Source: Candidatus Bathyarchaeia archaeon (lineage in GTDB: Archaea > Thermoproteota > Bathyarchaeia > Bathyarchaeales > Bathycorpusculaceae). From it: 55,947 bases of DNA. Position 1 is the stretch's first letter. Every line of letters starts with the position of its first letter. The stretch spans positions 1 through 55,947 of the forward strand of contig JBBFKZ010000007.1 in the NCBI GenBank assembly GCA_037481775.1, given 5' to 3'. Under the pieces are notes generated by a model. It saw only the letters and a program-made list of their open reading frames with translations, was not told the DNA's origin and did no database searches. The position numbers and the translations under genes are program-made. Positions 39,198 to 46,419 of this stretch are shown here, piece by piece.

Positions 39198-39752
39198 TTA
39201 AGCTACTGCTTGAACGTTGGTCTCTTTATAGTACATGGCCTGTGAAGTGAAGATGGTTATCGCAACTGTTAAGCCTATGTCGTTGACTGTGATGCTGTCT
39301 GGCTTGTCAATGTAGATTAGCAGTGTTTTGCCAGATTGAAGCGTTAAATCATTGCTGGCTTTCGCGAAAATGTAGTCAGTACTGCCAAGTGTTATTTTAC
39401 CGCCGTCAGCTAAAGTTGTGTTGAACGGCAAGTCAGCAGATATGGAGTCTGATGTGATGTTGTAGTAAACGTTTGTCCATTCGCATTCTTGGCCTCGAAC
39501 GGTTATTTTGTCGATGACTACGTCTCGTCCGCCAGTGTTAATTATCATTATTGCCGCTTGCGACGTGCTACCGTCTGCGTCATACCATACGTGTTGTTTG
39601 GTTAGGTGTAGGCTTTCTTCTTGTACACGCGTGCTTGTGACGTTGATTGCGAAGTAGGTGACGACGCTTGCGAGAAGCACGGAGATGACGAGTATGATTA
39701 GTGTGGTGACGACTGTGCTCAGAGCCCAACGATTCTTCAATAGTTTGTGCAT
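39198..39752 (-). CDS. Probable major pilin
   Basis: KNRWA|LSTVVTTLIILVISVLLASVV; NTGGRD motif; GGTGA SD; own T-rich terminator. Confidence 0.82.
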   Translation of the reverse strand: MHKLLKNRWALSTVVTTLIILVISVLLASVVTYFAINVTSTRVQEESLHLTKQHVWYDADGSTSQAAIMIINTGGRDVVIDKITVRGQECEWTNVYYNITSDSISADLPFNTTLADGGKITLGSTDYIFAKASNDLTLQSGKTLLIYIDKPDSITVNDIGLTVAITIFTSQAMYYKETNVQAVA

Positions 39753-39916
39753 TGCTTTTTCTCACCTTTAATATAACGCATTGCTGTCTAATTATAAATA
39801 TATTCTGTCGCAAGATTCAATATTTAATTTAAGGCTTAAAACTAAAAAGACACCTTTCATCTTCCACATTCAAATCAAAAATACACTCCGAACAAAAACC
39901 GCAACCAACCATGAAA

Positions 39917-40013
39917 TGGTGCGGTCGCCGGGATTTGAACCCGGGATCGCAAGCTTGGAAGGCTTCCACAGATACATGACTATTGTGTCCTAACCAGACT
40001 AGACGACGACCGC
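39917..40013 (-). tRNA. tRNA-Gly(TCC) with encoded CCA and a 19-nt non-canonical intron at 29/30 (39964-39982)
   Basis: Spliced sequence GCGGTCG TC GTCT AGTCTGGTTA GGAC A CAAGC CTTCCAA GCTTG CGATC CCGGG TTCAAAT CCCGG CGACCGC ACCA folds as a cloverleaf; BHB AGG-ACAC-AA^T / GTGG-AA^G-CCT with one A.G mismatch in the central helix. Confidence 0.95.
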
Positions 40014-40037
40014 ATACATAATAACGATGTTTACAAC

Positions 40038-40856
40038 ATGGATAAATCTTTTATTGATTGGCAACAGTTTAGTGAATGGGTAAACGCTAGGTACAGTAAC
40101 ACTTATGCAAGAATCATCCTACAACATACAAAGAAATATTATCATTTAATAAACGATGTTAAATCTTTAGAGTTAATTAAGCCTAGTATAAAAAACAATG
40201 TGGTTAAAAGCTTAATTATCTTAAGTAAGTTCTTAGGAATACATGAACAGTTTAAGAACACATTAAAAAACTATGGTGTTAAATTACATAAACAAAATGC
40301 TTTACAGTCATTTCTTAGAATATTAAATAATAATCATGATGTCTTAGACTGGTATAATATTGCCATATCTAATCTAAGAGATAACGAGAAAACTTTACTA
40401 AAATTCTGTTTGTATTCTGGATTAAGAAGAACTGAAGCTTTGACATCATTCAATAAAATTATTGATTTACATAAACAGAATAGACTTAGTGAATACTATG
40501 ACTCTAACCTTAACTGTTTAATGCATTTCAAACATCCTAAAGAATTCATTAGATATACAAAGAACGTTTACATATCATTCATACCTGAAAGCTTAGTTGA
40601 TGAAATAAGTACTAGTGAACCTGTTAGTTATGCAGCTATTAGGAAAAGACTTAACAAAAACAACATTAAAATTAGAATAAACGAACTTAGAGATTATTAT
40701 GGTACATTCTTGTTACAACATGGAATCTTAGAACAGGAAATTAATCTGTTACAGGGGCGTATTCCACCATCAATATTTGTCAAGCATTACTGGAGTCCAA
40801 AATTAAGTGAATTAAGAGACAGAGTGTTCAAAGTATTAAATCAGTTAGAACAATAA
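40038..40856 (+). CDS. Tyrosine integrase, C-terminal catalytic fragment Int(C); frame open upstream to the att core
   Basis: SGLR (R), YTKNVY (K), ELRDYY (R), LLQGR, KHYW (catalytic Y). Confidence 0.92.
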   Translation: MDKSFIDWQQFSEWVNARYSNTYARIILQHTKKYYHLINDVKSLELIKPSIKNNVVKSLIILSKFLGIHEQFKNTLKNYGVKLHKQNALQSFLRILNNNHDVLDWYNIAISNLRDNEKTLLKFCLYSGLRRTEALTSFNKIIDLHKQNRLSEYYDSNLNCLMHFKHPKEFIRYTKNVYISFIPESLVDEISTSEPVSYAAIRKRLNKNNIKIRINELRDYYGTFLLQHGILEQEINLLQGRIPPSIFVKHYWSPKLSELRDRVFKVLNQLEQ

Positions 40857-40876
40857 TTCCCTTTTTTCTTCTTTTA

Positions 40877-40987
40877 CTAAAACATCCCTATATGGGCACA
40901 TATTTCTTCTAGTTCTTGAACTCTTTTCTTGAGGTTAGCTATTTCCCTTTTTAGCTCCATTATCTCCTTTTCTACGTCCATAACCAT
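40877..40987 (-). CDS. Possible 36-aa coiled-coil peptide
   Basis: MVMDVEKEIMELKREIANLKKRVQELEEICAHIGMF; heptad pattern only. Confidence 0.35.
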   Translation of the reverse strand: MVMDVEKEIMELKREIANLKKRVQELEEICAHIGMF

Positions 40988-41181
40988 CCCATTAATCAAT
41001 TGAGTACGTCCTAATTAAAAACATACCACCCCTCTATCCCCTAAAAGGGGAAGTTTTAAACATACATTGTCAATACTGGTATGCTTTATTATATGTAATT
41101 CTGGGATAAGTCAAATATCCCCGTCTAGAAAATATCCTTTTAAAAATTGAAACCCAAGTCGCACTCTAAAAAATTCCATAT

Positions 41182-41331
41182 CTAATTTTTATGCTTGTCG
41201 TATGCTTTAGCTTTGGTGGTGTAATCATCATAGGTGGCTGTTCGCTCATTTTCCTTCAGTTTGAGAACATCAAAAATGTTATCAAGCTTTGCTCTTGCTT
41301 CTTGCTCTAACTTCTCATCACCTTTATTCAT
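41182..41331 (-). CDS. Possible 49-aa protein
   Basis: MNKGDEKLEQEARAKLDNIFDVLKLKENERTATYDDYTTKAKAYDKHKN; ATG overlaps the stop of the repaired upstream gene. Confidence 0.45.
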   Translation of the reverse strand: MNKGDEKLEQEARAKLDNIFDVLKLKENERTATYDDYTTKAKAYDKHKN

Positions 41332-41801
41332 TTACTATCGTTATTTTTCCTTTTAGTTGTTGTGTTAGCCATAGTAAACAATATATTCCTAGTAATGTTA
41401 ATGCACATAGTGGGATATAAATCATTAATAATAAATCTATTAGCGAATAACTGTACCAGTACCAAGGATGTTGTAAAACCTCAATACCAAAGGTGTATAA
41501 CCAATAAGCATTTGGTATTGTTAATGATATGATACTTGCATTTTTTTATGTTTTCTTTTTTAAGTATAATACTTAATGCTAACGTAATTATGCTGATTAA
41601 AGGTATCCATAGATTTATTAATTGAAGTTTTAAGGTTTCTATTCTATTTATATGAAATTCTGTTTCGTCCCCGTAGCCCCAAATCCAGAATTGAAAAGGT
41701 AAATAGCCGTATAATAGTGGAAGTATTATTAGAAAACATGTTAATGGTAGTAATAGTAATGTAGCTAAGTTTTTGATTATGGTTCTAACTTTTATTTTCA
41801 T
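41324..41801 (-). pseudogene. About 4-TM membrane protein frameshifted at an A7 tract (41541-41547)
   Basis: Removing one A continues the ORF with NASIISLTIPNAYWLYTFG...LLLMIYIPLCALTLLGIYCLLWL to TAA at 41324 (158 aa). Confidence 0.6.
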
Positions 41802-41910
41802 TTTTTACCCACACCATTCTAACCATGTTAATATTACATGTAGGTTTTCTACTCATCATCATTTGAAGTTTTGGTCTTTATTACACATTGATTAAAGTTT
41901 GGTTGGTTAT

Positions 41911-42246
41911 TCATTCTTCTAATACTTTGACGGTATTTATTGCATCAACCCATCTATTAACAAGATTCTTTACACGGTTCATTATTTCAGAGTAGGAGTC
42001 AAAAGCTAACAGCACATCAAATTGTCCTGCTTCAGGACACTTAAGAGCGAAACTTTGTTCTCCATTTTTCAGTTTTATGCCTAATTTACCAATACCATCA
42101 TTGAAAGCCTCTACAATGTCTTTTACTAAGTATACTTTTTCGCCAATAATCAATTTAGTTTTGGTTAATTTTATAGGTTTTGTTTGTTTCTTGAAAAGTC
42201 CAAGTTTTTCTACAATTTCCCCCGATAATATTACTTTTTCTTCCAT
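41911..42246 (-). CDS. Hypothetical protein, possible PH-like fold
   Basis: Beta-strand pattern ending in the helix VNRWVDAI. Confidence 0.65.
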   Translation of the reverse strand: MEEKVILSGEIVEKLGLFKKQTKPIKLTKTKLIIGEKVYLVKDIVEAFNDGIGKLGIKLKNGEQSFALKCPEAGQFDVLLAFDSYSEIMNRVKNLVNRWVDAINTVKVLEE

Positions 42247-42441
42247 GCTTTTTACTCTTCTTTTTCAACTATGAATTGTATGGTAAATTCGGTAAAAAGT
42301 TTATAAAATTTTTTAAACTAGAATCTTAACGGAAAATCAATATGAAAAACCTTTAGGATAAAGAACCTTGCTAAGTTGAAAACGAGGTTAAACTTCACAA
42401 GTTCCCAAATATTGTCATTTGCTTTCCTTATAAAAAGCCTA

Positions 42442-43047
42442 TCAATCAATCCATCCTTTAACTTCAGGCAGTTTATGTTGCTGTTCCCATACGATCAGAA
42501 ATATCTTATTTTTGGCTAGTATCTTTTGGGCTTCTTCAATATTCCATTCTTTGCTTTTTCTTTCGTCTACAGCCTTTCTTAAATTTTCAAAATAACTTAT
42601 GACAAGAAACCTATGACATTGTAGTCTTGTAAGATTTTTTATGTACTGCCGAAATTTATTCCACCTAATATAGCTGTTCTTGTTGTAATTCGTTATTTCC
42701 CATGCACTCCATCGCTGTCCATCTTTATACACAAGTACATCTAGAGCCTTATTCTTCGGTCTAACTACTATCGTAATTCCCTTTCTATAAACATAAAATC
42801 TATCTCCTCTAGGCTTACCATCACTAAACGGTCCACTATAAGACAGCAAATTATCAAACGATTTACCAGAAAACAACCTCTTAAACTCACTATTCAACCC
42901 TGTAAGACTATATCTATTTAATAATACGTAAACGAACGTTTCTGGGTTATTTTTATATATAGTGACCAGTATGTCCGCAACTTCACGTTCTCTAAGATGC
43001 CCAATTTTAAAACATTCATCAGGCTTAACAACTGTTCCCATTGACAT
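42442..43047 (-). CDS. Hypothetical protein, possible PD-(D/E)xK-like nuclease
   Basis: G...E..V helix then LDVLV...WEITN. Confidence 0.6.
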   Translation of the reverse strand: MSMGTVVKPDECFKIGHLREREVADILVTIYKNNPETFVYVLLNRYSLTGLNSEFKRLFSGKSFDNLLSYSGPFSDGKPRGDRFYVYRKGITIVVRPKNKALDVLVYKDGQRWSAWEITNYNKNSYIRWNKFRQYIKNLTRLQCHRFLVISYFENLRKAVDERKSKEWNIEEAQKILAKNKIFLIVWEQQHKLPEVKGWID

Positions 43048-43228
43048 CCCTTTTATCTAGTACTAAAAATCGCATGTACCGTCGAATAAGAGAAAACTGT
43101 TAGTCTTACCGGATTGAAAGTATGCTCTGAAGTTTCTTGTTTCTTCATATATCATGCACTCATAAATAAAAGGGAATGTGTATTTAAAAATCTTATTTTC
43201 AAATTGACGATATGGACATTATAAAAAC

Positions 43229-43510
43229 ATTATACACAAAGTTTTTATATTTTATGGCGATAAAGTATTATACACAAAGAAAAGGGAGAAAGAAAAATGC
43301 AAGTAACATGTCCAAAGTGTAAAAAACAAGGAACATTAACATCTAGATTAACCATAAGCTACGGAATACATTACCATTACTTCTACATTCAACATGTGGA
43401 ATTCATTAAAGGAAAAAGAAAGACAACATGGCATTACTTAGGAAAATATGAAGATTTACCAGAAGACATTAAGCAACTTATACACAAAAATTTTAGTACT
43501 GATACACAAA
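43229..43510 (+). repeat. TATACACAAA-type direct repeats around the Int(N) promoter and inside Int(N)
   Basis: ATTATACACAAAG at 43229-41 and 43267-79; TTATACACAAA at 43478-88; TGATACACAAA at 43500-10. Confidence 0.75.
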
Positions 43511-43593
43511 ACAATAACTCTGAATTAACCTCTAATCAACAAACAAACAACAAAAACGGGTTAGGACACAAGCTTGGAAGGCTTGTGTCCTAA
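43297..43593 (+). CDS. Integrase N-terminal fragment Int(N), running into the right att site
   Basis: CPKC plus YHYFYIQHVE...WHYLG resembles the SSV1 Int N-terminal region; joins Int(C) in frame on circularisation. Confidence 0.8.
   Translation: MQVTCPKCKKQGTLTSRLTISYGIHYHYFYIQHVEFIKGKRKTTWHYLGKYEDLPEDIKQLIHKNFSTDTQNNNSELTSNQQTNNKNGLGHKLGRLVS
43561..43593. repeat. Right att site: 13-bp perfect inverted repeat around a 7-bp spacer
   Basis: TTAGGACACAAGC-TTGGAAG-GCTTGTGTCCTAA; the spacer is the anticodon loop. Confidence 0.92.
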
Positions 43594-43613
43594 ACCAACT
43601 AGACGACGACCGC
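43569..43613 (-). pseudogene. Intronless 5' fragment of tRNA-Gly(TCC) (acceptor 5' strand through anticodon arm), displaced host half
   Basis: GCGGTCGTCGTCTAGTTGGTTTAGGACACAAGCCTTCCAAGCTTG; no T arm or 3' acceptor strand. Confidence 0.9.
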
Positions 43614-43664
43614 TATACATCAGCGCCATAAAAACATTAAAAAAAGCTATTTTAAGCTTCTCCA

Positions 43665-44198
43665 TCAAAGCGCCCTCAAATTTTCCTCCGCAACTGCGTC
43701 TAACCGTAAACGCACATAAGCAGCAATAACCGCCTCCACTGCTATTACAACCATCAGAAACACTGCAAGCATCCACGCCAAATCCCGAAATGCACGTAGC
43801 GCTTGATAATCTACATAGCCATTGACTAAGGCTATCCAGCTCCAGTAACTATGCCCTTGCGCCGCAAGAAACTCTTCTAAGTCCGCCGAAATCCACCAGC
43901 AAAAAGCCGTCAGAATAACTGCGAATAAGCTGCCTATTAACGTCAGGTTCTTCCAGTCAGAAGACAACGCCGAAGAATAAGAAATGCCAGTTCCAGAATT
44001 AGCTGGTGAAAGACGGTAGTGCATGATTTTCTTGGCAGTTTTAGGCGAAACACCCCAAAGCGAACCCTGCTGGACTGAAACAGCTATTAGTGGCTCCTCG
44101 GCAATAATCTTACATCCTTTCCTAAGCAGAAGAGTCCTCAAACGTGAATATGCTTCTGCAATTTCCAAGTTAACAACATGCTCAACCATAAGCGACAC
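43665..44198 (-). CDS. Hypothetical membrane protein (2 C-terminal TM)
   Basis: 177-aa ORF with host-like composition. Confidence 0.7.
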   Translation of the reverse strand: MSLMVEHVVNLEIAEAYSRLRTLLLRKGCKIIAEEPLIAVSVQQGSLWGVSPKTAKKIMHYRLSPANSGTGISYSSALSSDWKNLTLIGSLFAVILTAFCWWISADLEEFLAAQGHSYWSWIALVNGYVDYQALRAFRDLAWMLAVFLMVVIAVEAVIAAYVRLRLDAVAEENLRAL

Positions 44199-44226
44199 TT
44201 ACCGCGCATCTCTGCTTGAAACAGCT

Positions 44227-44940: not shown

Positions 44941-46419
44941 TTAACCTTTGACAACTGCTATTGGCACGAGTCTTGCGACCTTTGTGGCAACTCCAACTTG
45001 GTGGCTGACCTCGGCAACGACGTCCACATTCTTGTACGCGGCATCAGCTTCCTCAGCTAAAACCGCGGGGCTTGCGGCCCTGACAACTATGCCGCTCTTC
45101 TCCAACGCGGTTCGTATGTCTCCACCCCAGTACTTTCGTTTGGCCGCAGAACGACTTAGCATCCTGCCCGCGCCATGAGCCGTTGAACCAAAAGTCAAAT
45201 CCATGGCTTTTTCTGTACCCACCAGAATCCACGAGCTGGTTCCCATGCTGCCGGGAATAAGCACAGGTTGCCCTTCGCTGCGGTAATCCGCTGGGACGTC
45301 AGTGTGGCCAGGCGGAAACGCACGTGTAGCACCTTTCCTGTGTACCCAAACCTTTTTCTGGCTGCCATCAACCTGATGCTGCTCCACTTTTGCAATGTTA
45401 TGCGCTACGTCGTAAACAAGTTTCAACCCGAACTTTTCCGGATCCGCATGGAAAACTTGCTGGAAACTCTGCCTTACCCAGTGCATAATCGCCTGCCTAT
45501 TCGCAAAAGCGTAGTTAACCGCGCAAGCCATTGCTTGGAAATAGTCTTCAGCTTCCTTGCTTTTGCCAGGCGCGCATGCCAATTCCCGGTCAGGCAAGGT
45601 TATCTTATACTTCTGCACCGCGCGTTCCATGACGCGTAAATAGTCCGAGCATACTTGATGCCCATAACCGCGCGAGCCACAGTGAATCATCACCGTAACC
45701 TGCCCCTCCTGTTCGATACCGAAAACCTTGGCTGTTTTTGGGTTGTAGATTTTATCAACTCTCTGAATTTCCAAGAAGTGGTTTCCAGAGCCTAAGGTGC
45801 CTATCTGCGTTAGTCCTCGACTTTTCGCGGTTGATGAAACCTTATCTGGATCTGCGTTTTTCATGCATCCACGTTCTTCACAGTGCTCTGCGTCCTCTGG
45901 CCAGCCTAAGCCCTTACTGATTACCCACGATACGCCTTCAACAACAAGCCTATCAAGGTCGCTTGGAGTTATTTTGAAATCTTTCCGGCGGCTCCCCAGC
46001 CCGCAGGGAACATTCTCGAATATGGCGCTTGCCAGCTGAGCAAGCTTTTGCCGCATCTCTTTCTCCGAAAGGTTCGTTGTTATCAAGCGAACACCGCAGT
46101 TGATGTCGTAGCCCACGCCGCCCGGACTGATTACGCCTTCCTCGTAATCCGTTGCGGCTACACCGCCTATGGGAAAACCGTAACCTTCATGACCGTCAGG
46201 CAAAGTTACAGCATACTTGTAGATGCCGGGCAAGTGTGCAACATTAGCACATTGCCAAAGTGTCCTGTCAGTCTGCATCTTCTCCAAAAGGCTTTCATTC
46301 GCAAAAATCATGCCGGGAACACGCATCCCCGACCTATACTTTGGAATGCGCCATATACACTCGCCTACTTTTTCTAGGGGAACTTTCTCTGGCGGCGGAC
46401 GACTCTCAACTTCACCCAT
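44941..46419 (-). CDS. rtcB: tRNA-splicing ligase RtcB
   Basis: PDGHEGYGFPIGGV, DINCGVR, GSGNHFLE, HCGSRG, HRKGAT, STAHGAGR, AYK. Confidence 0.97.
   Translation of the reverse strand: MGEVESRPPPEKVPLEKVGECIWRIPKYRSGMRVPGMIFANESLLEKMQTDRTLWQCANVAHLPGIYKYAVTLPDGHEGYGFPIGGVAATDYEEGVISPGGVGYDINCGVRLITTNLSEKEMRQKLAQLASAIFENVPCGLGSRRKDFKITPSDLDRLVVEGVSWVISKGLGWPEDAEHCEERGCMKNADPDKVSSTAKSRGLTQIGTLGSGNHFLEIQRVDKIYNPKTAKVFGIEQEGQVTVMIHCGSRGYGHQVCSDYLRVMERAVQKYKITLPDRELACAPGKSKEAEDYFQAMACAVNYAFANRQAIMHWVRQSFQQVFHADPEKFGLKLVYDVAHNIAKVEQHQVDGSQKKVWVHRKGATRAFPPGHTDVPADYRSEGQPVLIPGSMGTSSWILVGTEKAMDLTFGSTAHGAGRMLSRSAAKRKYWGGDIRTALEKSGIVVRAASPAVLAEEADAAYKNVDVVAEVSHQVGVATKVARLVPIAVVKG

Follow-up and report, generated by a model that had tools for sequence, protein, structure and literature searches.

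Probable delivery of an intron-bearing tRNA-Gly(UCC) 5' half by an integrative element in a Bathyarchaeia archaeon

Results

The window analysed here, a stretch of 55,947 nt, comes from the metagenome assembly of a Bathyarchaeia archaeon (1.82 Mb, 96.7% complete). It contains an AT-rich insert of 3,619 bp (39966..43584; the length is counted relative to the empty site with one core copy and equals the core spacing), which interrupts a tRNA-Gly(UCC) gene in its anticodon loop and is delimited by the core spacing, the GC profile and the empty sites of five genomes of the same genus. Its GC content is about 0.30, with values of 0.27-0.35 between the two tRNA copies versus 0.44-0.56 in the flanks. 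Repeat comparison revealed an exact 16-bp att core common to both copies, covering the anticodon loop and stem, at 39950..39965 on the left (where its first 2 nt lie inside an intron) and at 43569..43584 on the right. The core motif occurs twice in the whole 1.82-Mb assembly, both times at an element border, which indicates that the repeat is not due to chance. A 31-nt block at the tRNA 5' end is also repeated in both copies, with 90% identity.

At the left border lies a hybrid tRNA-Gly(UCC) gene on the minus strand (40013-39917), which is scored at 44 bits by RF00005 (cut-off 29 bits). It is composed of an element-borne 5' exon (39983..40013; tRNA nt 1-29 with an element-type D-loop), an element-derived intron of 19 nt at Sprinzl position 29/30 (39964..39982; nt 32-50 of the pre-tRNA) and a 3' exon with encoded CCA (39917..39963), which is host-derived up to the core and identical to the same-genus genes at 46/46 or 45/46 positions. 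The element 5' exon retains every stem pairing with the host 3' half, and removal of the intron in silico yields a regular Gly(UCC) cloverleaf that equals the product of the intronless genes except for the D-loop. At the right border, the displaced 5' half of the host gene is left as an intronless copy of tRNA nt 1-45 (43613..43569, minus strand; nt 1-43 plus 2) whose D-loop differs from that of the element-borne copy. This arrangement of core, intron-bearing full tRNA and intronless 5' half had been described by an earlier sequence-only reading of the window, and all three features were found as described.

A TATA-like box, the putative promoter of the hybrid tRNA, is located 27-33 nt upstream of it (40040..40046, minus strand) and overlaps the integrase start codon; the hybrid tRNA may be expressed from the integrase promoter region through this box at -33 to -27. 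The host TATA-like box (43648..43655, minus strand) precedes the remnant by 35-42 nt and is also conserved in front of the intronless genes of the genus. TATA-like motifs upstream of the other tRNA genes of the genome peak in the -45 to -31 bins, which hold 13 of the 24 motif hits counted. On the element side of the right core copy, a perfect 13-nt inverted copy of the end of the 5' exon is found; it mirrors the element-type and not the host-type exon, which indicates that the two element arms belong together. Remnant and inverted D-arm/anticodon-stem copy form a terminator-like hairpin of 13 pairs (43551..43593, minus strand), whose 7-nt loop is the anticodon loop; a T run comes next. Around this loop, the sequence of the remnant junction forms a 16-bp palindrome that is close to perfect. 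Both ends of the element may provide functional signals, a promoter on the left and a terminator on the right.

Divergently from the hybrid tRNA, the insert encodes an intact tyrosine integrase of 272 aa (40038..40856, plus strand). It matches the PF16795 profile (39.4 bits, cut-off 27, E 7.2e-10) and the integrase family PHROG 5127 (1.7e-15); a sequence search against the PDB retrieved no integrase. With the structure model (pLDDT 87.2), Foldseek recovered the catalytic domain of the SSV1 integrase (3uxu, prob 1.00, TM(target) 0.71; 3vcf, TM 0.67) and the archaeal Xer recombinase 4a8e (E 4.7e-4). Profile and modelled structure thus identify the protein as an SSV-family tyrosine recombinase with a predicted tyrosine-recombinase fold. 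Residues 1-272 align over their full length with 32 homologues, and R130, K175, R218 and Y251, invariant in the 33 sequences, are the candidate catalytic Arg/Lys/Arg/Tyr set. The integrase ATG lies 72 bp from the end of the core (39965) and 56 bp from the intron. "Suicidal" integration of the SSV type, in which the integrase gene is split, can be ruled out, as the ORF at 40038-40856 is whole and the core lies outside the gene. The cargo comprises three minus-strand ORFs encoding a hydrophobic protein of 106 aa without family match (41481..41801), a protein of 111 aa without significant family match (41911..42246) and a protein of 201 aa whose only relatives are eight hypothetical proteins (42442..43047), as well as a plus-strand ORF of 98 aa with an N-terminal CxxC pair (43297..43593), which crosses the junction so that its final codons and stop are supplied by core and remnant.

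The borders of the intron are ambiguous by 2 nt on sequence alone; the register of the bulge-helix-bulge (BHB) motif places it at 29/30. In this copy a central helix of 3 bp plus an A.G mismatch separates the bulges AA|U and AA|G, and helices H1 and H2 have 3 and 2 bp, respectively. The motif is thus weaker than in relatives, with its central mismatch and an inner helix of just 2 bp. Among 46 distinct intron-bearing tRNA-Gly genes, at least three of four central pairs are formed in 45 and all four in 29; 43 genes have AA|G as their second bulge, and 44 have a complete outer helix (3/3). The true register averages 3.61 central pairs compared with 0.41-2.33 for shifted registers, a value reached in 0 of 1,000 permutations, and the central helix occurs in compensatory types (ACAC:GUGG, ACAU:AUGG, ACUC:GAGG). 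By these comparisons the predicted motif fits the archaeal BHB and is conserved with covariation. The BHB conformer has a folding energy of -31.6 kcal/mol, compared with -20.4 for the cloverleaf with looped-out intron and -35.8 for the unconstrained minimum free energy fold, which retains the outer AGG:CCU pairs and lacks the BHB central helix and bulges. The genome encodes two homologues of the splicing endonuclease EndA (two PF01974 matches) and, close to the element at 44941-46419, the ligase RtcB (family assignment demonstrated on the G256 orthologue); the intron is probably spliced by these enzymes in the cell.

All five genomes of the same genus (G001-G005) contain the empty site, an intronless tRNA-Gly gene between a homologue of the pilin gene and the right-flank genes, as the sequence-only reading had anticipated. 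Their 5' halves are identical to the remnant at 45/45 positions in four cases (L002, L004, L005, L006) and at 44/45 in one, the intron is absent from the tRNA-Gly(UCC) gene in all five, and upstream homology with these genes demonstrates that the native promoter region runs on from the remnant. The intronless empty sites and the native promoter region behind the remnant indicate that the host gene was intronless before integration and that 5' exon and intron arrived with the element. The conversion of an intronless host gene by integration, which had been proposed from the window alone, is thus borne out by relatives.

Similar elements were detected elsewhere. At two loci (L071, L072) the integrase is 88-89% identical (tblastn) and the host flank differs; the intron is the same except for one change, which completes the central helix to its full four pairs. 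At two further loci (L073, L074), the integrase is 63% identical, and a 29-nt intron at the same place adjoins the integrase gene, with an intronless remnant 6.4 kb away. This pairing, for which the earlier reading had suggested a survey, shows the same conversion from intronless to intron-bearing in a second element lineage. In G256, which contains the same module of integrase and intron-bearing tRNA, a remnant was searched for and not found, and delivery by an element is therefore not established for that genome. At 17 of 53 examined metagenome loci, the 5' half is duplicated and the complete tRNA lies at the opposite end of the element, and this genome harbors a second element with a duplicated tRNA 5' half (C2:101568-106140). 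Replacement of the 5' half is usual for this integrase family. The sequence-only reading had set the element against a norm of 3' duplication; its 5' half is indeed replaced, but this is not peculiar to it.

In a survey of 401 genomes of the order, 96 had the gene with the intron and 218 had it without, and G000 was the only genome with both. In most carriers of this old 29/30 intron family the intron is chromosomal and not associated with an element; among other genera, G009, G017 and G022, for example, contain it at the same position and locus. The event analysed here is therefore a lateral transfer and not an origin: the element would have carried an existing intron family into an intronless lineage. 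Intron gain driven by the element, as proposed earlier, thus holds for this locus, but the intron itself is not new; element-free relatives with the intron, which would speak against a gain, are lacking among the five genomes of the genus yet exist in other genera.

The element may currently be mobile. Its nearly identical cargo reaches a depth of 36-270 in two other runs in which the host-flank bins are at 0, the cargo is similarly in excess in a third run, where host-flank depth is low, and one contig links the right end of the element to a different flank. A free circular form or excision joint was not seen among the assembled contigs compared, and a search of viral contigs for the element gave no match.

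Discussion

The reading we favor, with a probability of roughly 85%, is that an element with an intact SSV-family integrase recombined into the tRNA-Gly(UCC) gene and swapped in an intron-bearing 5' half. The integrative element would comprise 3,619 bp with the integrase and four or so ORFs without assigned function, and the crossover would have taken place inside the 16-bp core in the anticodon-loop region. Its attachment site would have contained, on one side of the core, tRNA nt 1-29 and the 19-nt BHB intron with a promoter-like box upstream and, on the other side, the inverted D-arm/anticodon-stem copy followed by the T run. Integration would join the host 3' half to the element 5' exon and intron, creating the sole gene for tRNA-Gly(UCC) in this genome, whose transcript would now depend on splicing by the endonuclease and RtcB, while the intronless host 5' half would be stranded behind its own promoter and now end in the hairpin and T run.

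That the structure is an assembly artefact, with the element mis-joined to the chromosome at shared tRNA sequence, is hardly credible. Sequence similar to tRNA-Gly is very abundant in such samples (summed depth >12,000 in three runs), and many related contigs break at the tRNA; but both junctions are reciprocal exactly as site-specific recombination predicts, the two-ended structure recurs at L073 and L074, and a separate assembly, possibly from the same sample, contains a single contig of 23,278 nt that spans 39400-44071 with 0 differences. We attach similarly negligible weight to the converse history, in which the intron was native to the host and the element brought the intronless 5' piece, with a crossover in the shared sequence at the tRNA 5' end. 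There, too, an exact block of 16 nt is common to both copies, and genes at this locus in other genera bear the intron. However, it is the intronless piece that matches the native genes of four same-genus genomes without a difference and is contiguous with their conserved upstream region, whereas the 5' exon with the intron borders on AT-rich DNA of the element and on the start of the integrase gene; moreover, none of the five genomes of the genus has the intron, and the right-end arm of the element mirrors the D-loop of the intron-bearing copy. It is also very unlikely that the hybrid gene is dead because the insert is not removed, the cell having no working tRNA-Gly(UCC) or the assembly having missed a copy. 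The mismatch and the 2-bp inner helix of the motif would agree with this, and although a second tRNA-Gly(UCC) gene was not found in the assembly, its completeness of 96.7% leaves room for one. GGA codons require tRNA-Gly(UCC) for decoding, however, and the motif has the register conserved in the 46 distinct genes, the 5' exon preserves all stem pairings with the host 3' half, and a near-identical intron persists at L071 and L072.

A further explanation, which we regard as possible but tentative, concerns the benefit of the intron. As an adaptation of the element, the 19 nt between core and 5' arm would remove the target half-site from the rebuilt gene, block re-integration by kin or competitors and bias against reversal, while the remnant would become a symmetric site. 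In agreement with this, both arms of the inverted pair are missing from the hybrid gene after integration and the remnant junction is palindromic; three integrase lineages targeting tRNA-Gly (that of our element, the G256/L073 type and the Gly(CCC) type L135) share the intron position; and a protective intron has been suggested before for Caldiarchaeum (PMC3293823). On the other hand, tRNA-Gly(UCC) and tRNA-Gly(CCC) are also targeted by related elements of this family that lack an intron: in G278, integrase fragments are flanked by two intronless copies, and L144 and L150 have no intron either. Introns are present in 0 of 17 two-ended loci on other tRNAs. Since most carriers of the intron family have it on the chromosome with no element attached, simple capture from a host would explain the intron of the element. 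A site-blocking role, which the sequence-only reading had also considered, may exist, as may a benefit to the element, and the proposal itself dates from 2012.

The mechanism, together with the proposal that such an intron protects the site, has been published for Caldiarchaeum subterraneum, where recombination took place between an intron-bearing attP and an intron-free attB in tRNA-Thr(GGU) (Sugahara et al. 2012, PMC3293823), a case that the earlier reading had named correctly. There, the rebuilt tRNA gains an intron that the authors suggest may protect the integrated element. As described for that system, the target at our locus was intron-free beforehand, the crossover leaves the intron on the element side, a recombinase gene adjoins the rebuilt tRNA, and an intronless 5' fragment remains as a direct repeat at the other border. 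The two cases differ in intron position (24/25 versus 29/30), target (tRNA-Thr versus tRNA-Gly) and insert size (1.87 kb versus 3.6 kb). The 813-bp ORF of Caldiarchaeum was assigned as a recombinase by a classifier only and is encoded on the same strand as the tRNA, whereas here both profile and fold identify the integrase, whose gene is transcribed away from the tRNA; the evidence there came from fosmid variants of one population, here from empty sites in five sister species. Beyond what is described for Caldiarchaeum, we find a second element lineage with the same conversion and an intron traceable to a chromosomal family.

Integrases of the pTN3/TKV4 type in Thermococcales also use the 5' half of tRNA genes (PMC8371274). 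As these elements exchange the 5' part of the gene, expression of the rebuilt tRNA has to start from the element DNA adjoining the integrase. Similarly, our element supplies the 5' half and displaces that of the host. In contrast, pTN3/TKV4 integrases are "suicidal", with attP inside a gene that is split upon integration (PMC8371274), while the gene is whole here, and an intron, present in our element, is not mentioned for them in the account consulted. With SSV1-type integrases (PF16795; 3uxu, 3vcf) the protein shares the profile match, the catalytic-domain fold and a tRNA gene as target. SSV1 integration repeats the 3' 44 bp of tRNA-Arg and divides the integrase gene (PMC3293823), unlike our element, which duplicates the 5' 43-45 nt and leaves the integrase gene intact. 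For Thermoproteales, a model of intron transposition has been reported in which introns are copied between tRNA genes within a genome (Fujishima et al. 2010, as cited in a 2026 preprint). As in that model, gain of a non-canonical BHB intron is constrained by the splicing motif, but the intron described here keeps its position within a single tRNA family and is carried from genome to genome by an integrase element.

Integrase elements of this family might also seed and re-seed the 29/30 intron in Bathyarchaeia tRNA-Gly genes, an idea we consider rather unlikely at present. After integration, homologous recombination between the duplicated segments of tRNA nt 1-29, both of them 5' of the intron, would delete the element and keep the intron under the native promoter, resulting in an element-free intron-bearing gene; integrase-mediated excision, with a crossover 3' of the intron, would instead take the intron away. 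In three genomes of g17 (G354, G273, G352), the intron is homologous to the element-borne one, with no integrase found within 8 kb, and these may be candidate cases of element loss that left the intron behind.

Conclusions

The locus most likely represents a natural case of the route of tRNA-intron spread proposed in 2012. If the seeding of introns by such elements were true, it would provide a concrete two-step mechanism of scarless tRNA-intron gain in the Bathyarchaeia.

Structure of the interrupted tRNA-Gly locus

The left end of the 3,619-bp element (39966-43584) holds a tRNA-Gly(UCC) gene (40013..39917, minus strand) in which, as read from the sequence, the CCA is encoded and the third base of the anticodon stem is followed by a 19-nt insert. 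At the right end, sequence comparison identifies an intronless copy of tRNA nucleotides 1-45 (43613..43569, minus strand), the remnant of the host 5' half. Common to both copies are a 16-bp core without any mismatch (39950-39965 = 43569-43584) and a 31-nt 5' block with 90% identity. The sequence-only reading had named the full tRNA with its insert, the intronless half and the core, and these are indeed present, as is the difference between the two D-loops, which repeat and sequence comparison bear out. The Rfam tRNA model scores the full, hybrid gene at 44 bits (cut-off 29 bits), and ARAGORN detects it and labels it 'tRNA-???'; in an Rfam scan of the whole region the full gene is mis-scored as tmRNA (24.8 bits) and the remnant appears as tRNA (21.2 bits), both below threshold. 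GC content is 0.27-0.35 between the tRNA copies versus 0.44-0.56 outside, and in the whole 1.82-Mb assembly, which derives from a metagenome, the core motif occurs at two sites only, both at this locus.

The integrase ORF (40038-40856, plus strand) is assigned by Pfam, PHROG and fold matches. It matches the archaeal phage integrase family PF16795 with 39.4 bits (cut-off 27) and PHROG 5127 with an E value of 1.7e-15, and in a fold search its AlphaFold model, built from 33 sequences (pLDDT 87.2), resembles an archaeal Xer recombinase (4a8e, E 4.7e-4) and the catalytic domain of the SSV1 integrase (3uxu, TM 0.71; 3vcf, TM 0.67); a sequence search of the PDB with the profile of the 33 integrases matched no recombinase. 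Unlike in 'suicidal' SSV-type integration, the integrase gene is whole, its ATG lying 72 bp beyond the end of the core. Its homologues carry the source names Bathyarchaeia or Bathyarchaeota, which places the host. Pfam, PHROGs, a homologue search and a protein atlas gave no family or function for the four other ORFs of the element. A 98-aa CxxC ORF (43297-43593, plus strand) crosses the junction, with its final codons and stop in the core and the host remnant, so that its C-terminus would differ in the free element.

Empty sites and the direction of exchange

The sequence-only reading had proposed that the element replaced the 5' half of tRNA-Gly and turned an intronless host gene into an intron-bearing one. 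The empty locus was sought in relatives, and a 78-nt intronless tRNA-Gly was found at the site in all five other genomes of the genus. In three of them (G002, G003, G005) pilin-gene homologues border the tRNA directly on one side and homologues of the right-flank genes on the other; the remaining two (G001, G004) have the right-flank match next to the tRNA and pilin-gene homologues upstream of it in that contig. The remnant is identical to the 5' half of these genes at 45/45 positions in four genomes and at 44/45 in one, and from it runs on an upstream region with a TATA-like box that is conserved in the same-genus genomes. The identity with the empty sites, together with the geometry of site-specific recombination, thus marks the intron-bearing 5' exon as the arm of the element and the intronless piece as that of the host. 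This agrees with the element arm at the right border, which is a perfect 13-nt inverted copy (inverted repeat I13) of the end of the element-type 5' exon and not of the host type. A crossover in the 16 nt shared at the tRNA 5' end, in a host whose own gene bore the intron, was also considered; it is rejected by the empty sites, the identity of the remnant, the continuity of its upstream region and I13. Integration hence took place in the anticodon-loop core, exchanged the 5' half of the gene and brought in the intron.

Splicing motif and proposed working of the intron

In the standard bulge-helix-bulge (BHB) register each 3-nt bulge is cut between its second and third bases, a rule which, reasoned by hand, fits the canonical 37/38 intron case. 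Read in this register, the present copy has the bulges AA/U and AA/G (slash, cut); its outer helix is AGG:CCU, its inner helix measures 2 bp and its central helix combines three pairs with an A.G mismatch. The closest relative of this intron (loci L071/L072) differs by 1 nt, which converts the A.G mismatch to A-U. For comparison, the fetched loci yielded 46 distinct tRNA-Gly genes with an intron, of 12-31 nt and very different sequence. The central helix has at least three of its four pairs in 45 of the 46 genes and all four in 29, the second bulge is AA/G in 43 and the outer helix is complete in 44. Central pairs average 3.61 in register versus 0.41-2.33 with the register shifted, compensatory pairs are present among the genes, and when introns were dealt among genes the observed pairing was reached in 0 of 1,000 trials. 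The BHB-forced fold has -31.6 kcal/mol, the cloverleaf with the intron looped out -20.4 and the minimum free energy fold -35.8; this last, unconstrained fold of the hybrid gene contains neither the cloverleaf nor the BHB central helix and bulges. Judged from sequence, the insert is a genuine splicing-type intron. Splicing of the hybrid pre-tRNA can be strongly inferred from the two EndA homologues of the genome (in the regions C4:124837-125082 and C6:69356-69610), the nearby gene for the tRNA ligase RtcB (44941-46419, minus strand; 1.3 kb from the tRNA-Gly locus) and the fact that no tRNA-Gly(UCC) gene besides the hybrid gene was found in the assembly. Two EndA homologues are typical of the broad-specificity heterotetrameric enzyme. 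The linkage of RtcB and tRNA-Gly is kept in several genera and is probably synteny only.

The hybrid gene would be transcribed from a TATA-like box at -33..-27, overlapping the integrase ATG, and its pre-tRNA would be cut by EndA and sealed by RtcB. The host 5' half remnant would be transcribed from the old promoter, ending at a 13-pair hairpin and T run formed with the element arm, and excision mediated by the integrase would bring back the intronless gene. The intron may help the element, inasmuch as the hybrid gene lacks both palindrome arms and the remnant junction becomes a near-perfect palindrome (inverted repeat I7); against such a benefit, kin elements use tRNA-Gly without an intron.

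Distribution of the intron in the order

Exact patterns were used to survey 401 genomes of the order, many of them incomplete; the intron form was found in 96 and the intronless form in 218, and the remaining genomes matched neither. The intron form prevails in genera g13 (7/9, intronless 0/9) and g47 (9/10, intronless 0/10) and in family f7 (41/60, intronless 4/60), and the intronless form in genus g17 (79/89, intron 4/89); the other five genomes of the host's own genus all have the intronless form. Among the 401 genomes only that of the host contains both. No integrase was detected near 'native' intron-bearing genes in eight loci (from L051-L070; ±2.5 kb), nor at 40 further intron-bearing loci (±1.5 kb for 30 and about ±8 kb, contig permitting, for 10), and in two genomes (G009, G017) the intron-bearing gene adjoins the gene that also neighbours the intronless form in other genomes. 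The 29/30 intron is old and mostly chromosomal. Element-free relatives carrying the intron at this locus do exist in other genera, and in its own genus there are none (0/5). Of the intron gain that the sequence-only reading had ascribed to the element, the arrival at the host locus therefore stands, but not the novelty of the intron; the event is a lateral re-introduction.

A related element at loci L073/L074, with an integrase 63% identical by tblastn, has a 29-nt intron at 29/30 beside the integrase gene, and 6.4 kb from there lies an intronless remnant. This intron is homologous, with compensatory stem changes, to chromosomal introns of three element-free g17 genomes, and at a further locus (L135) the integrase adjoins an intron-bearing Gly(CCC) gene. 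The event thus recurs in a second element lineage, that of L073/L074. For a related element in genome G256, the core motif has five sites in the genome, only one of them a tRNA; a 28-nt 5'-half pattern with up to three mismatches matched only the gene itself, and no informative direct repeat was found, so that these searches located neither the other border nor a remnant in G256. The L073 and G256 elements have only about 1 kb in common, comprising the tRNA and the integrase gene.

One tRNA-Gly (L052; G022:C2, about 188371-188472) has C at the near-universal U33 (loop CCUCCAA), and the same anticodon loop adjoins integrase genes in two metagenome contigs (L146/L149).

Replacement of tRNA 5' halves in the integrase family

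Related integrases were found at 80 metagenome loci, 53 of which had enough flank to examine. At 17 of the 53 the integrase gene is directly preceded by a 5'-half remnant, and the full tRNA stands at the far end, with element repeats and a TATA-like box in front of it; these elements target Ser, Arg, Thr, Val and Gly(CCC) tRNAs, all of them without an intron. Two loci (L073, L074) are arranged as in the present element, one has a repeat that is not a tRNA, and 33 showed no second tRNA copy within the fetched DNA. The host genome itself contains a second such element outside the window, in tRNA-Val(GAC) (C2:101568-106140; L044; integrase 51% identical by tblastn). There the integrase gene directly follows the tRNA-Val 5'-half remnant, and 4.5 kb further on comes the full tRNA-Val, with the first 20 nt duplicated exactly and without an intron. 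Replacing the 5' half is, from the arrangement of these loci, a habit of this integrase family; integration on the 5' side is described as rare in archaea in the literature consulted.

Two to four spaced TTGACC-type repeats occur at element ends beside the rebuilt tRNA (100 nt before the far-end tRNA), followed, some 35 nt ahead of that tRNA, by a TTAATAAT-like box (L082, L093, L094, L100, L101, L122, L125, L136, L137, L140 and others). Repeats and box may represent integrase sites of the arm type and a tRNA promoter supplied by the element. In several g17-type tRNA-Gly genes the final 8-9 nt of the acceptor stem occur twice, a few bases apart, and are followed by a T-arm-like fragment (L043, G256:C45, 3630-3640; also L075, L112, L115, L144, L185), which looks like the scar of a different element targeting the tRNA 3' end. 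Three genomes have two intronless copies of the 5' part of tRNA-Gly(UCC) (G278:C24:151820-154732; G394:C1:45165-55940; G369); those of G278 enclose integrase fragments that contain stop codons and represent a decayed intron-free element with the same target.

Signs of mobility

Neither a free nor a viral form was found in viral contigs with the integrase protein and a 40-nt stretch over core and intron as queries, and no excision or circle joint among the contigs of four runs over 39400-44200, a search which, being of contigs only, says little. In two other sequencing runs (X3, X4), nearly identical cargo DNA (41.0-43.2 kb) is present at depth 36-270 and the host-flank bins (39561-39882, 43747-44200) are at 0; in run X2 the imbalance is the same, with a depth of 3-9 in the host-flank bins. 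A contig of one run passes from the remnant end (43614) into a different flank, and L071 and L072 contain the same module of integrase and intron-bearing tRNA in another host context with different cargo. We regard the depth imbalance, the foreign flank and the shared module as signs of mobility. In the same three runs the summed contig depth on the tRNA-Gly stretch (39883-40043) exceeds 12,000, and many loose ends begin exactly at the core borders (39945, 39965, 39969), so that in these communities this 3' half is joined to many different 5' halves and introns.

Relation to known cases

The sequence-only reading had pointed to a comparable tRNA-Thr/recombinase case in Caldiarchaeum subterraneum, which is that of Sugahara et al. 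2012 (PMC3293823). For tRNA-Thr(GGU) this paper describes an attP with an intron at 24/25, an attB without one and, 1.8 kb upstream, a 5' fragment separated by an insert that contains a putative recombinase, and suggests that the intron shields the integrated element. A 2021 review of archaeal tyrosine recombinases repeats this case as a proposed route of intron transfer. The logic, an intron-bearing element site recombining with an intron-free host gene, is the same, and the present locus therefore belongs to that known kind. It differs in lying in another phylum-level lineage, in stronger before-and-after evidence, in an identified integrase family and in evidence of recurrence. The 2012 locus is the only direct case that we found in the literature, and our search, with partial coverage, returned no account of Bathyarchaeia elements delivering tRNA introns. 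An October 2026 preprint on Asgard archaea, in which a test for mobile elements gave no enrichment, still calls the arrival of archaeal tRNA introns open, which gives the present case some current value.

The locus offers the state before the event, in five sister species, and the state after it, and adds an integrase that can be identified, visible constraint on the splicing motif and a second element lineage that did the same, with element-borne introns that can be related to a chromosomal intron family. That introns are carried between lineages by integrating elements, and that the intron disarms the rebuilt target site, could both be tested directly in an in vitro system of a single integrase and two short DNA sites. 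Beyond the single gene, the locus shows a whole Bathyarchaeia integrase family to be rebuilding tRNA genes from the 5' side.
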